DNA of 64,000 nt, taken from the sequence record NC_042128.1; one strand, 5' to 3'. This DNA comes from Escherichia phage RCS47. Position numbers and translations under genes: made by a program. Position 1 is the first letter of the stretch. Each line of letters begins with the position of its first letter. Below are positions 4,106 to 18,664 of this stretch, piece by piece. The notes under the pieces were generated by a model that saw only the letters and a list, made by a program, of their open reading frames with translations, had not been told where the DNA came from and did not search any database.

Positions 4106-4951
4106 ATGCTGGCTAAAGTCACTTTCCTGAGCTGTATAACGATGAGCGATTTTACTTTTTCTGGCTATGAATTGGCCTGCTTTGTAACACACTCCGGTCT
4201 ATCCCGTAGCGCCGGGCATATCCTGTCGCAATGTGCAAATCTCGCGGCAACAACCAGTGAATACTTCATTCACAAGCCTCACCGCCTGATCGCGGCAGAA
4301 ACTGGTTATAGCCAATCAACCGTCGTTCGTGCATTCCGTGAAGCTGTAAACAAAGGAATCCTGTCTGTAGAGATTGTTATCGGCGATCACCGTGAACGTC
4401 GCGCTAACCTGTACCGGTTTACACCATCCTTTTTGGCCTTCGCACAACAAGCCAAAAATGCGCTGATTGAAAGCAAATTAAAGATCTCTTCAGCGGCAAC
4501 CAAGGTTAAAGCTGTTCTCGCTAAGACATTGGCTTTATTTAATTTTTTATCCACATCCCCATGTCAAAATGATACCCCCTCCCCCTGTCAGGATGACGTG
4601 GCAATAAAGAATAAGAAGTCACAAGTTAAAAAAACAAAAAGATCAGTTTCCGACGGTGCCGGAACGTCCAGACTCAAAAAATTGACTTCGTGGATCGCTG
4701 AGGCAAAAGCAAAAGCTGACAATCTGCGGTTATCCAAAAAACGCGCTCAAAAACATGAGTTCAAGCAGAAAGTAGAGGCGGCAGCGCGGAAATATGCTTA
4801 CCTGAAGAACAAGCGTTCTCCTGATATTGGCGGGATATCAAACTTCGATAATCTGCCGCATTGCATGACGGTAAACGAAGCTCTTAATGCGGTTTTAGCC
4901 AAAAATAAAGATAACGAACAATGGGGTATACCGGCAGGATTCAGAGGGTGA
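4106..4951 (+). CDS. repL: lytic replication protein RepL
   Basis: 281 aa ORF directly downstream of kilA; size and position match P1 RepL. Confidence 0.6.
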   Translation: MLAKVTFLSCITMSDFTFSGYELACFVTHSGLSRSAGHILSQCANLAATTSEYFIHKPHRLIAAETGYSQSTVVRAFREAVNKGILSVEIVIGDHRERRANLYRFTPSFLAFAQQAKNALIESKLKISSAATKVKAVLAKTLALFNFLSTSPCQNDTPSPCQDDVAIKNKKSQVKKTKRSVSDGAGTSRLKKLTSWIAEAKAKADNLRLSKKRAQKHEFKQKVEAAARKYAYLKNKRSPDIGGISNFDNLPHCMTVNEALNAVLAKNKDNEQWGIPAGFRG

Positions 4952-4965
4952 TAGATTGCTCTAAT

Positions 4966-6330
4966 CTGGAGTCACCTGGCGTTTTCAGCGAAAAACCGCC
5001 GAGAACCCTCGCCCAATGCGGGCGGGGAGGAAAGGCGGAAAAGCCCGAAGGGCTTTAAAAATATTATTACGGTGTTAGCATAAAAACCTGTACCAATGAG
5101 CGGTGACTATGTTAAGAGCAACAAAAGTACGCATCTACCCGACACCAGAACAGGCTGAATTTATCAACGCCCAGTTCGGTGCAGTGCGTTTTGTGTACAA
5201 CAAAGCTCTGCATATCAAGAAACATTCTTACCAGCGGCACCGCGTAAATTTAAACCCGCGTAAAGACCTCAAACCACTGCTTGCAGTGGCGAAGAAATCC
5301 CGCCGGTATGGATGGCTTAAAGAATATGATTCTATTGCGTTGCAGCAGGCGGTAATTAACCTCGACGTGGCTTTTTCTAACTTTTTCAATCCGAAACTGA
5401 AAGCAGGTAAACCTACCTTTAAAAGTAAACACGGCAGACAATCTAGCTATCATTGTGTTGGCATAAAAGTCCTTGATGGTGCGATAAAAATACCGAAAAT
5501 CTTGCCGATTGAAGCGCGTTTACATCGTGAAATTACGGGAATGCTGAAAAGTATCACGTTGAGCCGCAGCGCAACCGGGAAATACTACGCGTCGTTACTC
5601 TGTGACGACGGGATGGAAGCGCCGGCAAAGCCCGCACTGATATCAAATGTGACAGGGCTGGATATGGGGCTGGCGCATTTTGTCATCAAATCGGACGGCA
5701 ATAAAATTGCCAGTCCCCGCCACCTAATCAATGCAAGTCGCAACCTGCGCCGGAAGCAGAAAGCACTGTCCCGTAAGAAAAAAGGGAGCGCAAACAGGCG
5801 CAAAGCCAGAATACAACTTGCAGCCGTTCACGAACGGGTAGCCAGTGCCCGTGCCGATTTCCAGCACAAGTTATCTCGCGCAATTGTTGACGAAAACCAA
5901 GCGGTAATTGTCGAAACATTGAAAACGGCAAATATGATGAAAAATCACCATCTGGCTCGTGCGATAGGCGATGCTGGATGGTCTGGATTCATCACAAAAC
6001 TGGAATACAAAGCAACAGAGAAAGGTGTGCATCTGGTGAAACTGGATCAATGGTTCGCCAGTTCGAAAACCTGCCACTGCTGCGGTCACAAAATGTCGGA
6101 GATGCCATTACATAAGCGCATCTGGCAGTGTCCAGAGTGTGGAGTTGAACATGACCGCGATATCAATGCGGCGCTCAACATCAAACGCAAGGGCATACTG
6201 GAATTACAAGCGGCGGGACTCGTCGTTTCTGCCCATGGAGGCCAGCGTAAATCCGTCACACAGACGGTTGCGGCTTAAGAAGTGGGAAGCCTCGCCCGAC
6301 AGGGCGGGGAGCAGTCACTATGGATTTTCT
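4966..6330 (+). mobile_element. solo TnpB element (IS200/IS605 family, no tnpA), approximate ends
   Basis: tnpB ORF flanked by related subterminal hairpins CCTCGCCC-N4-GGGCGGGGA at 5011-5032 and 6291-6311. Confidence 0.5.
5103..6278 (+). CDS. tnpB: TnpB (OrfB_IS605; RuvC-like nuclease with C-terminal zinc finger)
   Basis: 391 aa; zinc finger CHCCGH...CPECG near C-terminus; typical TnpB N-terminus MLRATKVRIYPT. Confidence 0.85.
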   Translation: MTMLRATKVRIYPTPEQAEFINAQFGAVRFVYNKALHIKKHSYQRHRVNLNPRKDLKPLLAVAKKSRRYGWLKEYDSIALQQAVINLDVAFSNFFNPKLKAGKPTFKSKHGRQSSYHCVGIKVLDGAIKIPKILPIEARLHREITGMLKSITLSRSATGKYYASLLCDDGMEAPAKPALISNVTGLDMGLAHFVIKSDGNKIASPRHLINASRNLRRKQKALSRKKKGSANRRKARIQLAAVHERVASARADFQHKLSRAIVDENQAVIVETLKTANMMKNHHLARAIGDAGWSGFITKLEYKATEKGVHLVKLDQWFASSKTCHCCGHKMSEMPLHKRIWQCPECGVEHDRDINAALNIKRKGILELQAAGLVVSAHGGQRKSVTQTVAA

Positions 6331-6616
6331 TTGGCGCGGTCTGGCCATTAGGGGTCATGTTTGCTGCAACGTTTCTTCTGATGTGGATATTCACCCTTCC
6401 AGGTGATTTCTATAGAAAAAAAGCCAGACATTGATACACCCGCTGCGGTGTGCTTGAGGCTATCTGCTTCAGGCATTCCCCGAAAAGCAGATAGAAGAAA
6501 GCCCCAGTAAACATTATGCGTCCCGCACAACGCTTAACATTAACCGGGGCCATACCTATGCTTAGCGTGCTTAGATTAATCCTCTCCTCTGTCAAGGAGC
6601 AAGGAATTTTTTACTG

Positions 6617-7249
6617 CTATGCCGCCTTTCCAGTTATGGATTCAGCGACCAGAACAACCCCATGCTTACTTCGATCTGGGTGTTCACTCCATATCTCGGA
6701 TTCAGGAATACTTACCCCGTCATAGCAAACACGTTCGCCGTCAAACGGGTAATACTGAGCGGCATCGGTGTCGAGGATAAACACTTTTAGCTCGGAAGAG
6801 CGACGGGCGATATGTTGCCAAAGAGCTTTTCCACCTTCGTATTGCTCATTATCACTGAGCAAAACAACACCAGCTTTTGAGGCTACGGTTTCGTAAACAA
6901 AAGTAGCTAAACCGACATCCCGGACAGTTCCATCAACCACGATACCTTCAATCTGGGCAACATCGCTATCCTCCCAGAACTTCCTTACCAGTACGCCTTC
7001 AAGCTGCGGGCGACGTTGAAGTTCAAGAGTAGCGACAACCTTATGCCGCATATCACCATCGATAACAGAAGGCGCAGCCTCTATTACAGCTGCAAATGGG
7101 GTTTTGGAATCCCATATAACCTGGTAAAGCACACCCTGGATGGTAACTCCGTCCAGGATCGAAAATCGACGAGCGACAGTACCCGGGGAGTACGACATTG
7201 GAATCACAGCCATTTTAGAGTCCCCCTTTAACAGTACAGGCACAAACAT
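6617..7249 (-). CDS. hypothetical late protein (alternative start at 7213)
   Basis: 210-aa ORF at the start of the minus-strand late block. Confidence 0.4.
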   Translation of the reverse strand: MFVPVLLKGDSKMAVIPMSYSPGTVARRFSILDGVTIQGVLYQVIWDSKTPFAAVIEAAPSVIDGDMRHKVVATLELQRRPQLEGVLVRKFWEDSDVAQIEGIVVDGTVRDVGLATFVYETVASKAGVVLLSDNEQYEGGKALWQHIARRSSELKVFILDTDAAQYYPFDGERVCYDGVSIPESEIWSEHPDRSKHGVVLVAESITGKAA

Positions 7250-7341
7250 CTACCTCAATAATTGTAGTTTATTAGAACATTAATAATCTAACATAAAACT
7301 CCAGACAATGTTATCGATGCATTTTTATATAAAATAGTTAT

Positions 7342-7363
7342 AAAAAAAGCTCCCGAAGGAGCT
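7342..7363 (-). terminator. Rho-independent terminator (minus strand)
   Basis: hairpin AGCTCC-TTCG-GGAGCT followed by T-run on minus strand. Confidence 0.5.
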
Positions 7364-7384
7364 TTAAAATACAAGGGATGACTC

Positions 7385-7894
7385 TTAATCCCACTCAATC
7401 CAGTTGTAGACGATACGAAGTGACGGGCGCACAGCGGCAGTCACATCTTCGGTACTAAAGTCGATTGCATCACTGTAGATTTTGCAGTCCAACATTTCAA
7501 TTGTTGTAGCAGCTTTTGTCACAGCGTTAACCCCGGAAGATTTGGATTCAGGGGTAGCAGCCATCGTGATATCAACATAGTCCTTCGCCGCAATGCGATC
7601 CTTAATGAACTGAAGAATATCGCCTTCGATAGTCTCCACGCACTGGACCTGGATTTCCCCAGAGTTTCGAATTGGTCCGTGCTGGTTGAACTTCACACCA
7701 TTCGGACCATAGTCCTCCACATCCTCGCGAGTCATTTCAGGGATTTGCGACGTACGAACAAGTACACTGATATCTTCATAGCCTGCAAAAGTGAGCTGGA
7801 ATTCAGAAGATACCAGTCGTTCGCCTTTGGCCGCGTTGGCAGTATAGCGGCCCTTAATAAATTTACGGTTTCCCTTAGTGTTATTGTGCCCCAT
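7385..7894 (-). CDS. virion morphogenesis protein (P1 late block)
   Basis: 169-aa ORF in co-directional late gene block; identity by context only. Confidence 0.4.
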   Translation of the reverse strand: MGHNNTKGNRKFIKGRYTANAAKGERLVSSEFQLTFAGYEDISVLVRTSQIPEMTREDVEDYGPNGVKFNQHGPIRNSGEIQVQCVETIEGDILQFIKDRIAAKDYVDITMAATPESKSSGVNAVTKAATTIEMLDCKIYSDAIDFSTEDVTAAVRPSLRIVYNWIEWD

Positions 7895-7905
7895 ATAAAA
7901 TCCTT

Positions 7906-8487
7906 TTACTGGAACGCCCGAACAATATCGGAGCTGTTATATATCGAAGAACCGGTCAACTGGAGGTTGACGGTGTTTTTCAGGAAATATCCATTACTGT
8001 CCCTTGGCGCATCGAGATCAAAACTTAAGTCCTGGATAGCGACATCGGTGATGTTGATCCGGCGACCAATGTTTAGCGTCACACGTTCCGGGATTCGACC
8101 ACCAACATTGGCCGCTTTTAGTTCCGGGCTAATCATGGCTGTCAACGCGGCGATAGCGCCTGAAACTTCAATGAATGGATTGTTCAAAGCAATGAAAGTT
8201 ACGGGCAGCGTGAACGTCGGCGGTGTCCCCCCTTCCCAAACCATTAAGCTGTTCCAACGGGCAACCGACGTTGTTTCAGTACCTACTTGCACAAACCCCC
8301 CCAGAGCGCCAGAAACAGACCCCATGGACATACCAGTAAACGGTGCTTCCCAATTCTGGGCCATGTTCATTGCCGCCCCCTGGCTGATATATCCGGTAAC
8401 CTGGTACTGAGAGTTCGTTAAAGTAACTTTCAGAAATGGCGATACACCATCAGCCTGGCTGTAAACCCCATAAGGTATAGGTGCCAT
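7906..8487 (-). CDS. virion morphogenesis protein (P1 late block)
   Basis: 193-aa ORF, context only. Confidence 0.4.
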   Translation of the reverse strand: MAPIPYGVYSQADGVSPFLKVTLTNSQYQVTGYISQGAAMNMAQNWEAPFTGMSMGSVSGALGGFVQVGTETTSVARWNSLMVWEGGTPPTFTLPVTFIALNNPFIEVSGAIAALTAMISPELKAANVGGRIPERVTLNIGRRINITDVAIQDLSFDLDAPRDSNGYFLKNTVNLQLTGSSIYNSSDIVRAFQ

Positions 8488-10997: not shown

Positions 10998-12725
10998 TTA
11001 CTCAGAGTCACCGGCATCAATCGTGTCGCCGCTAATGAAGTTAAGCCCGCCTTTTTTGGCCATTGTCAGCGTTACACGAGTGAAGTAATCAGCGCCGTTG
11101 CGTGGGTGCATATCGTTGATAGCCGAACCCCACAGCGTGGTACGGTTGACCAGCGCCGGAGTGGTCGGATGCTGGAACGGGATGGCCGGGACAGCATCAC
11201 CAGTCACGAAGCCTGCTTTACCCGGATTTTCATCACGGACGTAGCACAGCACATCCATCGAGCTGAACTGAATGTTCTCTGTCGTTAAGTTCTTACAAAT
11301 ACCAGCAGGTACTTCGTACACTTTCACGTTACCGAACAGGGTACCGATGTAGTGAACATACGGAGTCTGGATATAGTCTTCGGCTGGCTGGAAGAAATCC
11401 TTCGGCAACTGTTTGAAGAAAGATGCTGCATCAGCACCAGCAAACATCCCCATCGCACCAGAAGATTTAACGCGCTCAATAATGTCGCGATATACAGTCT
11501 GGAATTTGCCACGAATGATGGTTGCCCATACATCAAAGGACTGGTTAACCGGCAGAGCGATGTCAAAGGTGTCGGTCGCAAGAGTACGCCAGATCATGAT
11601 GCGAAGACGCAGCATATCCTGTTCATGAGACAGGTATTCCTTCAGGGTGCGGAACTGTAGGGAACCCAGGTCCAGACCAAATTCACGCTGTGCTTCATAC
11701 GCCGCCTGTACCGTGTGCTCAGCCGCGATAACGAACTGGCTTGGGAACAGGGTGTATTTCTTCATTTCGTGGTTGATCAGCGGGATCAGCTCAGGAGCGG
11801 CTTCAATATTGATTTCCGTCTCAATTGCGATCTCAGTGCCTTTATCCGGCGCTTTGGAGAACGACAGGGCAATCTGACCAATGTTGTAGTTCAGAGAGCA
11901 GGTAACAGTGATTTGCTCACCAGCAGCATTAGTAAACGAGTGAAGTAGGCTGCCGGAACCGTTATCAACAACAGACTTAATACGGTTAACGTAGATGTTA
12001 GTACGACCTTTTCGGATTGGTACATTCTGGCCTTCGAAGTCTTCCATCTTGAAGGTTGCGGTTTTGCTGGTGCCATCGGAGCTTGCCACCAGCACATAGC
12101 GGCGGCGTAACTGGCTGTACACACCGACGGATTGCATGTCCAGAACATCACCAGCAGCATAAGAACCAAAAGAGGAACCTGCCACGTTAAAGACTTCATA
12201 GATGTCGGACTGGTCACGCGTAACCGGAATGAAGGTACACGCATCAGCGGTAGCTGCCCCCAACTGAACAGGCAGGATCATCGCGAGGAATAAAGGCAGA
12301 CGCATAACACCGTCAGAAACGCTCATCATCTCTGCTGCGACGGATTCCAGCATCGCTTTATTAGTGGCATCCATGCTATTGCGGGTGGACTCAATCAGGC
12401 AGTTTTCCAGCGTCTGGTGGCAGGAGGCCAGAATTTCCGGACGCGGCATAGATTTATGTGCTGCGGCGTAGTCAGCCAGTGCACTTGCCCACGCTGTAGC
12501 GATTTGAGCGGTGGCATTATCAGAGATACCCGCAAAAACCGGGTCTTTACGTGCAGCTTCAAGGATAGATGCGGCACGCGCGGCATCATCTTTAATGAAT
12601 TGGTTATCAGTACCGAACTGCGCAGTGCTTGCCCAGCCAAGCACAGCTTTAGAGCGTTTTGCGATATCTGCAATACGATTCTGGTATTCGCGTAAGTTAC
12701 TCAATTTACTCTTCCTTAAACACAA
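10998..12725 (-). CDS. putative major head protein precursor (gp23 position)
   Basis: 575-aa ORF immediately upstream of parS/parB as in P1. Confidence 0.45.
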   Translation of the reverse strand: MCLRKSKLSNLREYQNRIADIAKRSKAVLGWASTAQFGTDNQFIKDDAARAASILEAARKDPVFAGISDNATAQIATAWASALADYAAAHKSMPRPEILASCHQTLENCLIESTRNSMDATNKAMLESVAAEMMSVSDGVMRLPLFLAMILPVQLGAATADACTFIPVTRDQSDIYEVFNVAGSSFGSYAAGDVLDMQSVGVYSQLRRRYVLVASSDGTSKTATFKMEDFEGQNVPIRKGRTNIYVNRIKSVVDNGSGSLLHSFTNAAGEQITVTCSLNYNIGQIALSFSKAPDKGTEIAIETEINIEAAPELIPLINHEMKKYTLFPSQFVIAAEHTVQAAYEAQREFGLDLGSLQFRTLKEYLSHEQDMLRLRIMIWRTLATDTFDIALPVNQSFDVWATIIRGKFQTVYRDIIERVKSSGAMGMFAGADAASFFKQLPKDFFQPAEDYIQTPYVHYIGTLFGNVKVYEVPAGICKNLTTENIQFSSMDVLCYVRDENPGKAGFVTGDAVPAIPFQHPTTPALVNRTTLWGSAINDMHPRNGADYFTRVTLTMAKKGGLNFISGDTIDAGDSE

Positions 12726-12840
12726 GGCACTTGTGTGAATCCCTTTTCGGAAGAGATTTTATTGAAAGTCACTTGTTGACTTTCTCGTGACAAGCAATTT
12801 TTTTATTTTTTCGGGAGGAGGGGAGGAAGGTAAAATCCAA

Positions 12841-12925
12841 GGTGAAATCGTGGCGATTTCACCTTGAAATTTTAGAGTAATTTACTTTAAAAACAGTCAG
12901 TTAATAGTGAAATTTGAATGGCGAA
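12841..12925. promoter_or_regulatory. parS: parS partition site
   Basis: heptamer ATTTCAC/GTGAAAT and hexamer TCGCCA/TGGCGA boxes flanking an AT-rich IHF-like spacer, directly downstream of parB. Confidence 0.75.
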
Positions 12926-12928
12926 AGT

Positions 12929-13930
12929 TTAAGGCTTCGGCTTTTTATCGAGGCTCTTTCTAAGGATATGCCCAATCATCCTGTCGAGTTCTTCCTGTAA
13001 CTCTTTTGAGAGTCGATTAAACTCATAAGAAAATGCACGGCCTTTCACGCGCTTCCTTGCAAAGCGATCCTTGTCCTCAAATTTCCATAATTCAGTAACT
13101 ACGGACTTATCTTTAGAACCTTTATCCGTGAGTAGTGAGGCTTCCTTTGTTATCAAGCGCAGGATTTTATTTTTAACTTCATCTTCGGCCATTTCTTCAA
13201 TGGATAAGATGTCGTTTATTTCCGGGGATATGTTTTGAATAAGCTGATCAAACTCTAAATTCTTGTTCCCCATTTCGTCGCCAACAGCACAAAGCGTTTT
13301 GTAGTCCGAAAAGGTTAATTCCGACTGCACAGGGAAAAGGGCGACTAATTCTTCCGGAGCACTCGCTGCCTGGAGAGCACGCGTGACCTTCGCCTGAGAC
13401 AGCCCTTCTTTGGCTGCAATATCCTTCTGACTCATCCCATCATTTTTCATTCGCATCAAACGCAGACCTATTTCTCGAATGCTGTGCTGCAATGCTGTCT
13501 GAACGTCTTTCGCTAAATTTTGCGCTTCCTGAACGCTGATCTCCTGGTCCGTGACTAAAACCCGCAACCCTACGTTCTCTAAGATGGCAGAAGCTCGACG
13601 CCGGGAACCATCCAAAATTTCAATTTTCCCTGTAGCCCGTCTGACACCTATTGCAGGGTAAAATTGCTGATGCTTAATAGTGCTTCGGATACTTTTTAAT
13701 GATTTTGGCGTAAGAGATGCCTGGTCACGCCCGTTGTTATGCTGATCAACAAAGGTATCGCTTTCTACCTGGTTCGGAGGTATTACCTCTTCAATAAATG
13801 TGGCCTGGCGACCAGTTGATAACTTGAATACCTGCTCGACTCGATCGCCAGAGGCTGAAGAACTATCAAATCCGCTTAATATTGAAGGATTAAGGGTTCG
13901 CCCAATTGTTGGTCTGTTTTTCTTTGACAT
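12929..13930 (-). CDS. parB: partition protein ParB
   Basis: 333 aa; P1-type ParB sequence; adjacent to parS and parA. Confidence 0.9.
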   Translation of the reverse strand: MSKKNRPTIGRTLNPSILSGFDSSSASGDRVEQVFKLSTGRQATFIEEVIPPNQVESDTFVDQHNNGRDQASLTPKSLKSIRSTIKHQQFYPAIGVRRATGKIEILDGSRRRASAILENVGLRVLVTDQEISVQEAQNLAKDVQTALQHSIREIGLRLMRMKNDGMSQKDIAAKEGLSQAKVTRALQAASAPEELVALFPVQSELTFSDYKTLCAVGDEMGNKNLEFDQLIQNISPEINDILSIEEMAEDEVKNKILRLITKEASLLTDKGSKDKSVVTELWKFEDKDRFARKRVKGRAFSYEFNRLSKELQEELDRMIGHILRKSLDKKPKP

Positions 13931-13946
13931 GGGGGTTTCTTACTCC

Positions 13947-15143
13947 TCAGTTAGATCTGATAAATTCAATACGGTCAAAAACTGCTTTAGCAAAATCTTC
14001 CGCGGCAATTCGCGCGTTCTTCAATGCATCAGCACTACCAACATACGTTGCCGGGTTAGCTGAAATAACAGTGTCAAAAGACTCGCCGCAGCGTTCAAAA
14101 CCGTCAAGGCGAGGGAGGACGACATCAAGCATATCCCCACCGAACACTTCTTTAGCCAGGCTATGGCAATACTTATGGTCTGCCTTGTTACTCAACTTGG
14201 ACATAAAACCAATGTTAGTCGCAAGCTGGCACTCGCAGCCTTCATCCGAAATGAGTTTTACCAACTCAGGAAGGCGGGCAACGTATTTAAGCGATGAGTG
14301 GAAATCAACCGTTGCAGGCGGCAGAGGTGTAAACAGTATATTGGCCGAGGCCAAAGCATTTTTCAGGAAGGCGTCAAGGTGAGGACCACTATCAACGAGG
14401 ATAAAGTCATAATCGCTCTTCAGCTTATCAATCACATTTTCTTTCAGGACTGCATGGATGTTTTGACCCGGTAGATGCTCATTGCACAGCTCTCTCCAAT
14501 CGGATGCAATAAAGGCATCGTCAATCGACGCAGGCATAACGTCAACCCCAGGTACAACAGAAGGAACAATAAACTCCTCTAACAGCTCTTCACGGCTTAC
14601 ATTCTGCAACATAGCCTGTGCAGATGTTGCGTTTACGATACCAATAGAGTGTTTATGGCTTAAAAACATCGTTGCTGAAGATTGCGGATCAAGGTCAATA
14701 ACCAGAATCCTTAAATCTTCCATCAGAAGATGAGGGTGAGCACGCATTGCATGCGCCAGAGAAACCGTCGATACAGTTTTTGACACACCGCCTTTAAGAT
14801 TGGAGATGAAAATCACATACGCTTCGCTGTAGCGATCCCGGTATTTTGGCACTCCGCGATGTTCATATATGTCAATGATGTTCTGAATTGACATCGCATA
14901 TTTCATTGAAGAGCCAGCAGGGCGTTTATCGAAAACATAACCCTTTTCTTCCATTTCACTCACGGCATAGTCAACGTTCGCTCGAGTCAGTAGAGGCAAT
15001 TTTGCCAGTGCCGCTTTCGCATAGACCTGGTAAAACTCGTTCGCGTGTAGCTCATCCTTTTGCAACTGTACTTGTTCAGTCAGAACATTGAGCATTCTGT
15101 TTGCTCTTTGAGCAACCTTGTGAAGCTGGCTGGAATCACTCAT
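13947..15143 (-). CDS. parA: partition ATPase ParA
   Basis: 398 aa; deviant Walker A KGGVSKT; N-terminal HTH extension typical of P1-type ParA. Confidence 0.9.
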   Translation of the reverse strand: MSDSSQLHKVAQRANRMLNVLTEQVQLQKDELHANEFYQVYAKAALAKLPLLTRANVDYAVSEMEEKGYVFDKRPAGSSMKYAMSIQNIIDIYEHRGVPKYRDRYSEAYVIFISNLKGGVSKTVSTVSLAHAMRAHPHLLMEDLRILVIDLDPQSSATMFLSHKHSIGIVNATSAQAMLQNVSREELLEEFIVPSVVPGVDVMPASIDDAFIASDWRELCNEHLPGQNIHAVLKENVIDKLKSDYDFILVDSGPHLDAFLKNALASANILFTPLPPATVDFHSSLKYVARLPELVKLISDEGCECQLATNIGFMSKLSNKADHKYCHSLAKEVFGGDMLDVVLPRLDGFERCGESFDTVISANPATYVGSADALKNARIAAEDFAKAVFDRIEFIRSN

Positions 15144-15283
15144 CGAAAGCCATCCTTTATGCTGTATTTTTGAATTTAATTAAAAATGCTGCATAAAATA
15201 ATAATGTATGCGTAGATGCTTGTACATAGCATTCTCTGCATGTTTGGTTCATTTTGCACGATTGAGAGTTACAAGGAGGGCAC

Positions 15284-15304
15284 AAAAAAGCCCCGTTCAG
15301 GGGC
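15284..15304 (-). terminator. Rho-independent terminator (minus strand)
   Basis: hairpin GCCCC-TGAAC-GGGGC followed by T6 on minus strand, right after the stop of the 15312-16121 gene. Confidence 0.55.
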
Positions 15305-15311
15305 ATCAGTG

Positions 15312-16121
15312 TTATTTGCTAAGAGCAGCGAATAATCGTTCGAAATCGATAGTATCTATGGCACGCGTAAGCGCCGGAAGTTCAGCCTCAAAGTACCCGT
15401 GTCGATCGTAAAAGAAGGGACCGAAGAGCGAGGCATGTTGGATTCTACTTCGCCCCAGCCCGGACACACAGTTAAGCCCATTACCGGCTAAAAGGCTAAA
15501 AAACTTCTCTGGATTATCGTGGTAAAGCTGGGAATCAATGGTGGCGGTTAACTCTTCCATAGGGAAGCACACCCGCCTTGTCTCCCAGGAATATTTAGTC
15601 CGAAGCATAAACATTGCTTTCAGCAATTCACATTGAGCGCGGATCGCGTCCGGTTCATAGCCAGATATGGAGACATAAGCCACGTCCCTCATTCCTGCGT
15701 CATCTTTGAAAGTCACGATAGAAGTAACATCCAGCTCTTTTTCGAAAGAGCGGGCAGCATCTACTGGACGCTGAAGTAAATCATTCGACTTAATGCGCTC
15801 GAGAATCCCTCCCCACATATCATTTAGATATTCGATATGAGCCAAAACCTTATCAAGACACTCTCGTGTAAACCATTCAGTATGCCCGCCACCAGCGCTT
15901 TTCTCCCACGGCGCATTCCAGGGGAAAAAGGTTGCGTGTAAAGCCCGCTCAAGATTAACTATTGCCAAACGCGTACCACGATAGACCCGTGAAAGCGCAA
16001 AATCGGGACTCACTTGTAGCCCTTTAAACCGTGCCAATGGACCACATGAAATGCCGATTTTAAAAGTATCTCCATTCTCCGGCACCAGAACGTAGAGGTA
16101 GTGTTGTTTCTCTTCTTGCAT
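15312..16121 (-). CDS. T5orf172 / GIY-YIG-like domain protein
   Basis: N-terminus YLYVLVPENGDTFKIGIS...RFKGLQ...LERALHATF...HTEWF matches the T5orf172 pattern; 269 aa. Confidence 0.55.
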   Translation of the reverse strand: MQEEKQHYLYVLVPENGDTFKIGISCGPLARFKGLQVSPDFALSRVYRGTRLAIVNLERALHATFFPWNAPWEKSAGGGHTEWFTRECLDKVLAHIEYLNDMWGGILERIKSNDLLQRPVDAARSFEKELDVTSIVTFKDDAGMRDVAYVSISGYEPDAIRAQCELLKAMFMLRTKYSWETRRVCFPMEELTATIDSQLYHDNPEKFFSLLAGNGLNCVSGLGRSRIQHASLFGPFFYDRHGYFEAELPALTRAIDTIDFERLFAALSK

Positions 16122-16154
16122 ATCAATACCACTGCTTGATGAGAACCGCGCAAA

Positions 16155-16413
16155 TGTTGACTATGCGCGAAAGTTAATGTGAATAGTTGACTATGCGCGA
16201 TGTGACTACAGTCAAAAGTTGACTGTAGTCGATTTAACTCCACCAAAGATCGACTATGTAAGATATTGTCGGGAGAAACGTTGACTATACGCGATGAAAT
16301 GACCCTAAAAGCCATCTCAATAGCAACTTGCAGAATATTGACGCCAGCAAAAATCCACCAGCGTCAACGAATGTCGCCTATAGTCAACTTCTCGCTATCG
16401 CATATAGTCAATA
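16155..16413. repeat. iteron cluster (incA-like), core GTTGACTATGCGCGA / CGCnTATAGTCAAC in both orientations
   Basis: at least seven copies read from sequence downstream of repA. Confidence 0.7.
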
Positions 16414-17298
16414 TTATGGATTGCGCTTATGGATCTGGAAGCCGATTTTCCTGCCGTTTTTTATTTCTGAAAATTTAAGATATTCAATAGCTTCCAAATC
16501 TTTCATGGCTTTTCTGATAACGCTATTTTGCACGCTAACGGATGATTTGAGATTAAGCCTTGCTCTAAGGCGCTCAATGCTGACAGGTGCCGGGTTGGCG
16601 GGTAGAGCCTCAAAGAATGTATACAGTACCTTGGCCGTCTCTTTGCGCCCGAGCTTATCCAGCATCTTCAGCTTCAGGATTCGCTTATAGTCAACATAGT
16701 AAAGTTCAGATAGCTGTTTCTGCGGCTGGATCTCGATAACATCAAGCTCAGTATTCAGGCTGCTATATGCCAACAAGTTGACGTTAATGTTATTGAGATG
16801 ACCTTTTGCCGCCGGGAAGCGGAATTTGACAACTGTCTGCTGAATGCGTGTCAGAGAGTCATCAATACTTTTACGGAACGCCTTTGAAAGGCGCTTACGT
16901 GGATAGCCGCATCGATCGGCAAACTCGGAGAATGGCAGGGTGATTATGCCGTCATCATCAGGAGCATAGTCAAACAACGCGGAGGTTATGCCCACCCACA
17001 CCTTAAAATCAGTATCCATATCCAGGCGTGGACCATGAATTTCAATTCCCTCATAGCCTTCCTGCTCAACAATTTTGAGGCTTGATAGTTCTTCGGTTGC
17101 GTTCGTTGTGTTTGTTGTAACTGACGATCCGCGACGTAGCGCCACATTGGTAGATTTTAAGGTTGGCACAAACACACCTAAGCGCAACAAAGCTATGGGT
17201 TGTATAGTGCTGTTGTTATTGGGCTTCAGGCTGTGGATTTCTCCTGTATTTCCTGCAACTTCTTCAACGCTAAGGAAGCCTTTACTTTCTTCCGGCAT
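16414..17298 (-). CDS. repA: iteron-binding replication initiator RepA
   Basis: 294-aa ORF bracketed by iteron arrays in P1 oriR-like arrangement; motif GPRLDMDTDFK. Confidence 0.7.
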   Translation of the reverse strand: MPEESKGFLSVEEVAGNTGEIHSLKPNNNSTIQPIALLRLGVFVPTLKSTNVALRRGSSVTTNTTNATEELSSLKIVEQEGYEGIEIHGPRLDMDTDFKVWVGITSALFDYAPDDDGIITLPFSEFADRCGYPRKRLSKAFRKSIDDSLTRIQQTVVKFRFPAAKGHLNNINVNLLAYSSLNTELDVIEIQPQKQLSELYYVDYKRILKLKMLDKLGRKETAKVLYTFFEALPANPAPVSIERLRARLNLKSSVSVQNSVIRKAMKDLEAIEYLKFSEIKNGRKIGFQIHKRNP

Positions 17299-17375
17299 CG
17301 TGGTTTCTCCATGTGTGGCGCGGCCTGGCGTTAATTTAGATGACTGTTATCAACAGCTGTGAATATTCAGGCTCT

Positions 17376-17481
17376 AAAATCGCGTACAGTCAACGTTTCT
17401 GTCGCGTATAGTCAACAATAAATCGCGTGCAGTCAACATAAAATCGCACACAGTCAACATAAAATCGCGTATAGTCAATGT
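17376..17481. repeat. five direct iterons (CGCGTATAGTCAAC-like) spaced about 22 bp: replication origin core
   Basis: copies at 17376, 17401, 17424, 17446, 17468. Confidence 0.7.
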
Positions 17482-17482
17482 T

Positions 17483-17590
17483 GATCCCGTTTCAGGCCAT
17501 GAACGGCGCGGCTTACAGCGATCCGGGATCTTCTTTGGATCTTCCTAGGTTCTCTTTGGGATCTGTTTATTGGATCTATGCTGTGGATAA
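17483..17590. promoter_or_regulatory. origin-associated GATC cluster (six Dam sites) and DnaA box TGTGGATAA (17582-17590)
   Basis: GATC at 17483, 17519, 17526, 17538, 17559, 17572; exact DnaA-box match. Confidence 0.6.
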
Positions 17591-17632
17591 GTTGAATAAA
17601 CCGGCCAACATAGCCGGTTGGAAGGAAGGGTA

Positions 17633-18025
17633 TTATTCTACGCTTTCGATAAGAAGACCATGTTCATAACATTTAAGCTCATCGCCTTCGTACAGGAATT
17701 GGTATCCAATACCACCATTTTCATGGACATTAGGGAATAACTCATAACTCACTGAAGAGCAAATCACACCAATGCAGCGATCAACGCCTTCTCGTTCTTC
17801 AGTGCTGAAAAAATCCTCTTCGGTAAGAACATGAGTACATTGCTCATCAGCATAGGTCGGAAATACATGCTCAATGCAATCCGGGTGTTTTAAACCAAGC
17901 TGAGCGGCAAGCTCGAAAGCATGACGGTATTGTTCAGATCCTGGCTTGCCAACAGTGATGTGCTCAATTTTGTAGATTGAAGTCGCTTTGTTGATAGTTT
18001 GCTTTACTGTTACTTTATCAGACAT
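17633..18025 (-). CDS. hypothetical protein
   Basis: 130-aa ORF. Confidence 0.45.
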   Translation of the reverse strand: MSDKVTVKQTINKATSIYKIEHITVGKPGSEQYRHAFELAAQLGLKHPDCIEHVFPTYADEQCTHVLTEEDFFSTEEREGVDRCIGVICSSVSYELFPNVHENGGIGYQFLYEGDELKCYEHGLLIESVE

Positions 18026-18036
18026 AAAAATCCCTT

Positions 18037-18369
18037 TTAGTTACCGCTGATAGCGCGGTTGTAATCATTAACGTTGCGATTCTTCCTGTTAATCCCCATC
18101 AGCATCGTTTCTGTATCGAGGATATACGCTGGCAGATCATCGAAATATTCACTGCTAAACTCTGGCATTCTGCACATAAATGCACTTTTGGGGGCAGGGT
18201 GGTTAACCTTTGTCGGCGTCGGCGTTAAATTCGCTGATCGACTCCCGGAGCAACCGCTGAGTGTCAGCAGGAATGCGCTGGCGAACATTACCCGCCGCAA
18301 CCAGTTGTTTCTGAACTTCAGCTTTTCGTTCCATTTGCCTGTCAGCATATTTGGCTTGTTCTGATTCAT
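18037..18369 (-). CDS. lipoprotein, o-spanin-like (true start likely internal)
   Basis: lipobox LSGC, proline-rich mature region; out-of-frame overlap with upstream membrane protein gene. Confidence 0.45.
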   Translation of the reverse strand: MNQNKPNMLTGKWNEKLKFRNNWLRRVMFASAFLLTLSGCSGSRSANLTPTPTKVNHPAPKSAFMCRMPEFSSEYFDDLPAYILDTETMLMGINRKNRNVNDYNRAISGN

Positions 18370-18625
18370 TTTTCACTTCCTGGCTGTGAAAATGTTGCTC
18401 TGCTTTGTTCATCGTCTCAATGGTCTGGTTAAGATCCATTATTGACTTATCACGTTCCTTAACAGCCTGATCAAGACTGCCAATTTTCTCGATGGCTTGC
18501 TTTAGCTGATGACGTTCCCATGCAAACCCAGCACCAACAAGTGCGCAAATCAGAACAAGAACACCAGTAGCAGCAAGTTTCTCCTTCAAAGACAAAGCTG
18601 TTTTTAACGTAGAAAAGAATGACAT
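18203..18625 (-). CDS. type II membrane coiled-coil protein, i-spanin-like
   Basis: start at 18625 with AGGAGG SD; N-terminal TM segment LAATGVLVLICALVGAGFAW then coiled coil. Confidence 0.45.
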   Translation of the reverse strand: MSFFSTLKTALSLKEKLAATGVLVLICALVGAGFAWERHQLKQAIEKIGSLDQAVKERDKSIMDLNQTIETMNKAEQHFHSQEVKNESEQAKYADRQMERKAEVQKQLVAAGNVRQRIPADTQRLLRESISEFNADADKG

Positions 18626-18664
18626 GTCTTCCTCCTGAAGAAAAATTATCAATGAAGTCCTTTG

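Follow-up and report, generated by a model that had tools for sequence, protein, structure and literature searches.

Introduction

A free-standing homing endonuclease cleaves alleles in which its own gene is missing, and repair of the break copies the endonuclease gene plus its flanks. In phages, the Seg proteins of T4 and I-TevI are free-standing GIY-YIG homing endonucleases of this kind. Proteins of ICP1, other vibriophages, and Kuttervirus that combine a CapR-homology domain with a T5orf172 domain are likewise treated as homing endonucleases, and the DNA-binding domain of PLE CapR has been derived from this T5orf172 homing-endonuclease family (PMC8096241). A further related system is Odn (Gp88) of phage ICP1, a nuclease of the T5orf172 family; its N-terminal domain is similar to the part of PLE RepA that binds DNA, which suggests that Odn recognizes PLE origins, and it was named an origin-directed nuclease (PMC8263062). 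Here, one mobile element directs a nuclease at the replication origin of another by means of a specificity domain related to an iteron-binding initiator domain. In this study, we examine a T5orf172/GIY-YIG-family gene that lies inside the replication region of a P1-like phage-plasmid, Escherichia phage RCS47 (NC_042128.1); the whole stretch of 64,000 nucleotides analyzed is called the window throughout.

An earlier note, made from the letters of this DNA alone, had described a 269-aa open reading frame (ORF) with its own terminator between the iterons downstream of rep and the parA promoter, and both the ORF listing and the terminator and promoter-like calls agree with that description. We find that this gene rides as a fixed passenger on the p0111 replicon cassette without being essential to it, and that it encodes a two-domain protein, in which an N-terminal T5orf172 domain and a lineage-specific C-terminal domain are joined by a poorly conserved linker. 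The features that carry the argument are the following.

15246..17504, no strand: p0111 cassette, 2259 bp, with origin iterons, Rep_3 rep gene, iterons, T5orf172 gene and terminator
15312..16121, minus strand: coding sequence of the T5orf172/GIY-YIG-family protein, 269 aa, ATG start, stop codon included
15807..16121, minus strand: predicted N-terminal nuclease domain, aa 1-105, with motif residues Y8/Y10, K21-I22-G23, R31, E58, H62 and E82-W83-F84
15690..15806, minus strand: proposed linker, ~aa 106-144, poorly conserved and not confidently folded in either model
15315..15689, minus strand: C-terminal orphan domain, ~aa 145-269, predicted to be winged-helix-like and presumed to bind DNA
15280..15304, minus strand: intrinsic terminator (5-bp all-GC stem, 5-nt loop, T-run), closing the T5orf172 gene and possibly a rep-gene operon
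17505..17700, no strand: GATC-rich/DnaA-box part of oriR, homologous to P1 with ~12% divergence, inherited along with the cassette in every case

Comparison with described systems

Like Odn, the window protein is a two-domain T5orf172 nuclease by its motifs, with the conserved Arg and Glu and without the His/Tyr of the first helix. Its gene is also embedded in an iteron replicon, and the model of its C-terminal domain weakly resembles initiator winged-helix domains. The two differ in their second domain: in Odn, the domain that binds DNA comes first and has 42% identity to PLE RepA_N, whereas the non-nuclease domain of the window protein is C-terminal and shows no sequence or profile similarity to its own Rep, to P1 RepA, or to related Reps.

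With the GIY-YIG/T5orf172 homing endonucleases of phages, the protein shares motif residues and the combination of a small GIY-YIG-type catalytic domain with a separate part for DNA binding, which in the window protein is a predicted one; the catalytic domain is N-terminal, as it is in I-TevI. The gene, too, is similar in being intergenic and self-contained, with a terminator of its own, and in its dispensability and decay. In contrast, domains of the CapR, Bro-N, KilA-N, or zinc-finger type are absent from the protein, its domain order is opposite to that of the phage relatives detected here, and the gene resides in a plasmid replicon cassette instead of among the genes of a lytic phage.

Results

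The gene belongs to the p0111 replicon cassette. The window represents a P1-like phage-plasmid without the P1 (IncY) replicon, in which a RepFIB-like Rep_3 replicon took the place of repA-incA. In an alignment with P1 (NC_005856), positions 12000-15245 are 99.4% and positions 17505-19500 are 97.0% identical, whereas 15246-17504 lacks P1 homology except for a 59-bp, 76%-identical patch inside rep. The 2259 bp of the cassette stand in for 1500 bp of P1 (the spacer upstream of Ppar, incA, repA, and the incC iterons), a stretch that starts a little upstream of the Ppar -35 element and ends just beyond the last incC iteron, and the GATC-rich/DnaA-box half of oriR is retained. Both the T5orf172 gene and its terminator fall within the replaced segment. 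P1 has no coding sequence between incA iteron 1 and Ppar, only a spacer of ~190 bp, in agreement with the earlier note, and Cronobacter phage JK004 likewise lacks a gene at this place. What the note did not recognize is that the contrast with P1 goes beyond one gene and concerns the replicon as a whole.

The general plan of the two replicons is nevertheless alike: five origin iterons beside a GATC/DnaA-box region, an initiator of the Rep_3 type (41% identical), an iteron array downstream of rep, and then Ppar-parA-parB, which in the window is 99.4% identical to that of P1. They differ in the iteron sequence, in the presence of both orientations in the post-rep array of the window, and in the additional 810-bp nuclease gene with its terminator between array and Ppar. 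This segment corresponds to the 'p0111' replicon known from SJ46-, JL22-, and Ro157c2YLVW-type elements. It substitutes for repA-incA in about half of the P1-like phage-plasmids, 24 p0111 and 31 IncY replicons having been counted among 55 such elements (PMC9603915), and the cassette alternates as a whole with the IncY replicon in collinear P1-like genomes. On its left, identity to P1 is uniformly ~99.4% right up to the junction; rightward from the cassette, mismatches per successive 200 bp number 25, 8, 4, 4, 2, and 0. Single-nucleotide differences in 17505-17700 are of the cassette type in nearly all 44 p0111 loci, and beyond this segment they switch to P1-type alleles at variable points.

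Linkage of the gene to this cassette is close to absolute. Among PLSDB plasmids, the T5orf172 gene occurs in 401 and rep in 399, an almost one-to-one relation, and at least 80% of the gene is retained in 391 of the 401 records, so that outright deletion is rare. Searches of PLSDB never found the gene apart from the p0111 rep cassette, and tblastn detected no copies of less than 90% identity there. The cassette is present in 419 of 5426 complete E. coli genomes (7.7%), nearly always with the same ends. Hence, the nuclease gene that the earlier note had placed at the replication/partition junction is no independently mobile insert at that junction but a constant component of the p0111 cassette.

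In complete E. coli genomes, 8 of 474 occurrences of the cassette are on records labelled as chromosome (e.g., NZ_CP007394.1, 2171295-2173549), which suggests integrated P1-like elements or assembly joins.

Relatives were sought in an index of 5.8 billion proteins (with the full-length protein and with an N-terminal profile), by tblastn in PLSDB, and in GTDB genomes and IMG/VR, while the C-terminal ~170 aa were compared with 1.84 billion representative proteins in an exhaustive HMMER search. All of these together yielded near-identical copies, fragments of them, and one true homologue. No deep alignment is possible, because the relatives comprise only this near-identical family and the one 44%-identical protein. 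The homologue (P0004) is encoded on a 95.7-kb Logan contig (L002) from a diverged P1-like element in which the order rep, T5orf172 gene, parA, parB is the same as in the window, as are the iteron core and the four inverted iterons directly upstream of the ATG. It likewise has a PF10544 match. Between the two elements, Rep is 84%, ParA 89%, and ParB 67% identical, compared with 44% for the nuclease protein, which has thus diverged fast; its N-terminal domain is 65% and its C-terminal part 32% identical. Given a homologue of such divergence at the same position and a ratio of nonsynonymous to synonymous polymorphism (pN/pS) below 1, the ORF is a real gene and not a product of chance.

The gene is dispensable and weakly constrained. 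A survey of disruptions covered 45 loci from IMG/VR and GTDB, one of which is cut by a contig end. In the 44 usable loci, the gene is intact in 36 (82%) and disrupted in 8, by S112* in five loci, W68* in one, Q228* in SJ46, and an IS200/IS605 insertion in one. SJ46 was deposited as a phage genome. The lesions represent independent events, and dispensability is accompanied by degeneration of the kind seen in homing endonuclease genes. Protein databases also contain clusters of truncated products of 111 aa (151 and 43 members) and 168 aa (229 members), next to 1241 members of the full-length form.

The insertion lies in locus L045 at 6295-8057 (IMGVR_UViG_2645727563_000002), where 230 bp of the gene were lost; the IS200/IS605-type element has a TnpB-like ORF of 389 aa and a TnpA-like ORF of 141 aa.

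Constraint on the gene is weak compared with that on its neighbors, as the mean pairwise pN/pS values indicate.

T5orf172 gene: 0.33
rep: 0.02
parA: 0.002
parB: 0.055

Variable codons (35 nonsynonymous and 29 synonymous) are spread across both domains, and many are singletons at residues that are conserved in the distant homologue. At least 99% identity to the window protein is found for the T5orf172 protein in 23 of 401 PLSDB records, compared with 392 of ~399 for Rep.

Plasmid CP042620.1 encodes a Rep that is 85% identical to that of the window, with no trace of the T5orf172 gene downstream. Rep thus does not need the gene, and since this Rep is found on a different backbone, the initiator must have moved between phage-plasmid backbones. 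The plasmid (L003, pNCYU-26-73-5) measures 93.7 kb and has its rep at 4248-5132 beside an annotated phage tail protein gene; nothing in this gene neighborhood matches parA, parB, or the T5orf172 gene.

By presence alone, with 401 records against 399, the gene comes near to being a core gene of its replicon type in all relatives, a finding that the earlier note would have counted against an accessory role. Yet it is often inactivated and is missing beside one 85%-identical Rep, and in this respect the note was right to call it accessory. Presence with the replicon is therefore not the same as being needed by it, in view of the disrupted alleles and the weak constraint. Absence from CP042620.1, disrupted alleles in otherwise intact elements, and a pN/pS of 0.33 against 0.02 for rep all differ from what an essential p0111 replicon component would display; the gene is an accessory and no component of replication or partition. 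At the same time, the pN/pS well below 1, the 82% of intact loci, and the conservation of motif residues and position across 44% identity argue that it has been functional over evolutionary time.

The N-terminal domain resembles phage T5orf172 endonucleases. The note's reading of the N terminus as T5orf172/GIY-YIG-like was confirmed by a profile search: Pfam T5orf172 (PF10544, clan GIY-YIG) matches aa 8-85 with 26.8 bits against a gathering cutoff of 20 (E 7.6e-6), covering profile positions 2-87 of 101. MUG113 and Tox-URI2 match the same stretch weakly, below threshold. NCBIfam has no match to the protein. In PHROGs, it matches phrog_2876, a family listed with unknown function, over its full length, and it weakly matches phrog_681, which carries the annotation 'endonuclease', at the C-terminal end of that family. 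On this profile evidence, the assignment of the domain to T5orf172 within the GIY-YIG superfamily holds. When the window protein is aligned with four others, namely its 44%-identical homologue and three T5orf172 'endonucleases' of phages, Y8, Y10, K21, G23, P28, R31, E58, H62, G79, and E82 are invariant. By analogy, R31 and E82 may be the counterparts of the GIY-YIG catalytic pair kept in ICP1 Gp88, and as in Gp88, no His/Tyr follows the Arg (PMC8263062). In the full-length AlphaFold model, the domain has a predicted local distance difference test (pLDDT) score of 48-67, and Foldseek found no significant match to it in the PDB.

The nearest detectable relatives of the nuclease domain, with 31-36% identity over ~85 aa (E 1e-4 to 1), are products of free-standing endonuclease genes, found in marine vibriophages (211 records), Kuttervirus, and Klebsiella phages. 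Those examined in Kuttervirus and in vibriophage K459 are wedged between structural genes. In two of the three phage relatives examined, CapR-homology DNA-binding domains precede a C-terminal T5orf172 domain, which places them in the family that PMC8096241 treats as homing endonucleases.

The C-terminal domain is an orphan. As the earlier note had it, the C-terminal ~170 aa cannot be assigned: they match nothing in Pfam, NCBIfam, or PADLOC, the HMMER search of representative proteins returned only fragments or homologues of the same protein, and a sequence search of the PDB gave no match. Full-length protein and C-terminal domain were modelled separately with AlphaFold from a two-sequence input. 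The linker has pLDDT values of 23-43 in the full-length model and 26-45 in the C-terminal-only model, and its conservation with the protein of L002 is low. The C-terminal model has a better core, ~aa 150-215, with pLDDT values of 60-79. Its weak structural matches and their scores are listed below.

Cyclic-nucleotide-binding transcription factor Bd2879: 5.7
TcpK (oriT-binding): 5.0
ORC/Cdc6 winged-helix domains: ~4.8
MSBI1.176 Rep WH1: 4.8
RepE: 4.5
RctB: 4.2
pPS10 RepA: 3.7

With modest support from this model, the domain can be seen as a probable winged-helix DNA-binding module, while the matches as modelled lend no support to a specific kinship with initiators. The possibility that it is a Rep-derived DNA-binding domain, giving an Odn-like chimera, was rejected at the sequence level; a weak hint at the level of the fold remains.

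A chimeric protein from an E. coli plasmid (P0005, 197 aa) has an unrelated 79-aa N terminus joined to the C-terminal domain at about residue 106, the domain boundary; this foreign N terminus has no match in Pfam.

Replicon organization and expression. The neighboring genes are all on the same (minus) strand as the T5orf172 gene, in the order upfA-like orf130, origin iterons, rep, second iteron array, T5orf172 gene, terminator, promoter-like site, parA, parB.

17633-18025, minus strand: upfA-like orf130
17375..17482, no strand: origin iterons, five tandem copies with 21-22 bp spacing, iteron core TTGACTATRCGCGA
16414..17298, minus strand: rep, 294-aa Rep_3 initiator (RepFIB-like, 'p0111'), with Pfam Rep3_C and Rep3_N
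16152..16414, no strand: post-rep (incA-like) iteron array, with the same iteron core as the origin
12929..15226, minus strand: Ppar, parA, and parB, P1's own partition operon, outside the cassette and 99.4% identical to P1
13947-15143, minus strand: parA
12929-13930, minus strand: parB

Rep is 45-48% identical to RepFIB-type initiators and 41% to P1 RepA. In the array behind it, two iterons have the orientation of the origin (16374 and 16398, just past the rep stop codon), and four are inverted (16156, 16186, 16218, and 16280), next to a degenerate copy; the last inverted iteron ends ~35 bp upstream of the T5orf172 ATG. The distant homologue shares this ATG and an AGTGGT motif 6-7 nt upstream of it. 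The terminator stem-loop GCCCCTGAACGGGGC (15304-15290, minus strand), followed by its T-run, starts 8 nt past the stop codon. Between the start of rep and parA, no other call on the minus strand combines a G+C-rich stem with a T-run, the two further calls being weak stems that lack one. The promoter-like site at 15226-15198 (minus strand) belongs to the part with 99.4% identity to P1, in which the P1 annotation places Ppar.

A consensus scan of the minus strand from the rep stop codon to the T5orf172 ATG called no sigma-70-like promoter and no terminator. Candidate promoters seen by eye inside the iterons were not accepted, as their spacers measure 19-20 bp. Because the ATG lies directly behind inverted iterons, no promoter or terminator is called between rep and the gene, and a single strong terminator follows, we infer that transcription may arrive by read-through from Prep across the array or may start at a weak promoter inside it, and that it would be subject to Rep occupancy.

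A further iteron copy, TCGCTTATAGTCAACAT, is found inside the rep coding sequence at 16681-16697 and at the same place in the diverged L002 (7610-7630); it may represent an internal Rep-binding or autoregulatory site. The direct and inverted iterons of the array are separated by an 18-bp box (16335-16365, minus strand TTGACGCTGGTGGATTTT) that is identical in L002 (7916-7933), whereas the surrounding spacer differs. The window copy of the box contributes to an imperfect hairpin, which L002 does not share; the box could serve as a -35 element or be bound by a protein. The only Rfam match in the region, DUF2800, is at chance level (E 0.58, 21.9 bits against a threshold of 60.2), and the base composition of the region is unremarkable.

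Discussion

We tentatively propose, with a probability of about 0.4, that the protein is a free-standing nuclease of the homing-endonuclease type or one that serves competition between elements, and that it is carried by the replicon cassette. The features that suggest this are a catalytic domain tethered to a predicted DNA-binding domain, a self-contained intergenic gene with recurrent decay, fast divergence of the putative specificity domain, and strict linkage to a cassette that alternates with IncY on near-identical genomes. The protein would cleave related elements that lack the cassette at one specific site, e.g., in IncY-type P1 replicon regions, acting like a free-standing homing endonuclease or like ICP1 Odn. 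Upon co-infection or co-residence, the competitor might then either be destroyed or be repaired from the cassette-bearing genome. Either outcome would promote spread of the cassette, by marker exclusion or by co-conversion, with the replicon cassette as the co-converted unit. The cassette-bearing element would itself be spared, since it does not contain the target. If expression depends on read-through or is gated by Rep, it should be highest before Rep accumulates, i.e., at entry into a new cell. After fixation of the cassette in a lineage, the nuclease would no longer be needed and could decay as in the homing-endonuclease life cycle.

The cassette flanks are compatible with homing or competition but do not constitute a test of it, and several observations weigh against such a role. 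Ordinary homologous recombination among P1-like elements explains the variable breakpoints on the right and the mosaic flanks equally well. Retention at the same place in two lineages whose proteins are only 44% identical argues for a lasting benefit and not for a purely selfish cycle. The domain order, with the nuclease first, is opposite to that in Odn and in phage endonucleases of the CapR type, and the scan described above called no promoter for the gene. The view of the C-terminal part as a DNA-binding domain is likewise affected: the AlphaFold models are of low confidence (pLDDT 51 for the complete protein, 50 for its C-terminal domain modelled separately), Foldseek found no significant match in the PDB or BFVD, and the domain has no similarity to the window Rep or P1 RepA in BLASTP or to a profile of five Reps in hhalign. 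Homology to the iteron-binding domain of an initiator, which characterizes Odn, is thus lacking.

A nuclease might also protect the lysogen more generally, as a single-protein defence that degrades the invading DNA of unrelated phages or plasmids or triggers abortive infection. Phage-plasmids do carry defence cargo, and T5orf172/GIY-YIG domains do occur in defence proteins; the gene is a non-essential accessory, and its fast evolution (44% identity against 84-89% for its neighbors) and raised pN/pS would fit an arms race. However, no PADLOC model (PADLOC-DB v2.0) matches the protein even at an E value of ≤1, and the gene is locked to one replicon type and does not lie in a variable cargo hotspot. 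Moreover, scattered singleton changes that include conserved residues and stop codons look like relaxed constraint and not like diversifying selection, and ~18% of the copies are broken, so we consider a defence role unlikely, if worth keeping in view. The gene might instead be a decaying passenger, an old endonuclease gene captured beside the replicon that is now functionless and is kept by linkage to rep and low cost. The common nonsense alleles, the insertion, and the frameshifted products, a pN/pS 6-160 times that of the neighboring genes, and the Q228* allele in the SJ46 phage genome all point in this direction. Complete loss of function is somewhat hard to reconcile, though, with 36 of 44 intact copies, a pN/pS clearly below 1, motif residues, start region, and position that are kept in the 44%-identical homologue, and the rarity of outright deletion among the 401 records, at least 80% of the gene being retained in 391; we therefore rate this as rather unlikely.

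Conceivably, the protein has been domesticated as a regulator whose winged-helix domain binds the iterons or Ppar and tunes copy number, handcuffing, or par expression, with a nuclease domain that is inactive or nicks. The location between iteron array and Ppar within the replicon cassette would suit such a function, the weak structural matches do include the initiator winged-helix domains of RepE, pPS10 RepA, MSBI1.176 Rep, and RctB, and PLE CapR provides a precedent for domestication in the T5orf172 family (PMC8096241). This seems distinctly improbable for a gene that is dispensable in nature and weakly constrained where rep, parA, and parB are very strongly constrained, that is missing from a plasmid with an 85%-identical Rep, and whose product lacks sequence or profile similarity to Rep but keeps the putative catalytic residues. 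A more specific form of the competition idea would be an 'incompatibility weapon', in which a highly diverged Rep-like winged-helix domain steers the nuclease to the iterons or origin of a rival IncY (P1/P7-type) replicon, gated by the Rep-iteron array of its own element and firing on entry into the cell. We regard this as a long shot. If true, it would drive replacement of replicon types in P1-like phage-plasmids and amount to a plasmid-encoded counterpart of ICP1 Odn, i.e., nuclease-based plasmid incompatibility.

E. coli and Salmonella commonly carry P1-like phage-plasmids, on which extended-spectrum beta-lactamase (ESBL) and mcr-1 resistance genes have been reported. Either IncY or p0111 serves as the replicon on backbones that are otherwise almost identical, and a nuclease built into one of these two cassettes is an obvious candidate for a factor biasing competition or recombination between the types. 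If this homing-endonuclease-like or competition nuclease does cut the rival replicon, it would offer a simple example of nuclease-mediated replicon displacement. If it is functionless, it would clearly illustrate how a homing-endonuclease-like gene decays where it stands, and would caution against equating 'always present' with 'needed'. A homing-endonuclease-like gene in a phage genome will hardly surprise specialists; what stands out is its position inside a replicon found in ~8% of sequenced E. coli.

Previous annotation of the gene

The sequence of the gene is already annotated and has been mentioned in papers, so it is not new. It is the 'gp57, unknown protein' that, jointly with repA', takes the place of repA in JL22 (PMC9603915) and the 'GIY-YIG nuclease' listed in a p0111 replication region (PMC9037040). 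Full-text literature searches found no functional study of it. RefSeq/PGAP names the product 'GIY-YIG nuclease family protein' and one phage record 'T5orf172 domain-containing protein'; phrog_2876 and the RefSeq protein of SJ46-, JL22-, and Ro157c2YLVW-type elements are the same protein, with 97-100% identity. Our analysis adds the exact borders of the cassette, the combination of linkage to rep with dispensability and relaxed constraint, the orphan C-terminal domain with its probable, model-based winged-helix nature, the conserved placement behind inverted iterons, and the hypothesis of competition or homing.

Annotation differs among public records. That of phage phi456 labels the gene 'terminase small subunit', which is clearly wrong, and MH422554, MH445380, and MH445381, named 'Escherichia phage P1' or 'Punavirus P1', carry the p0111 cassette and not the P1 replicon.

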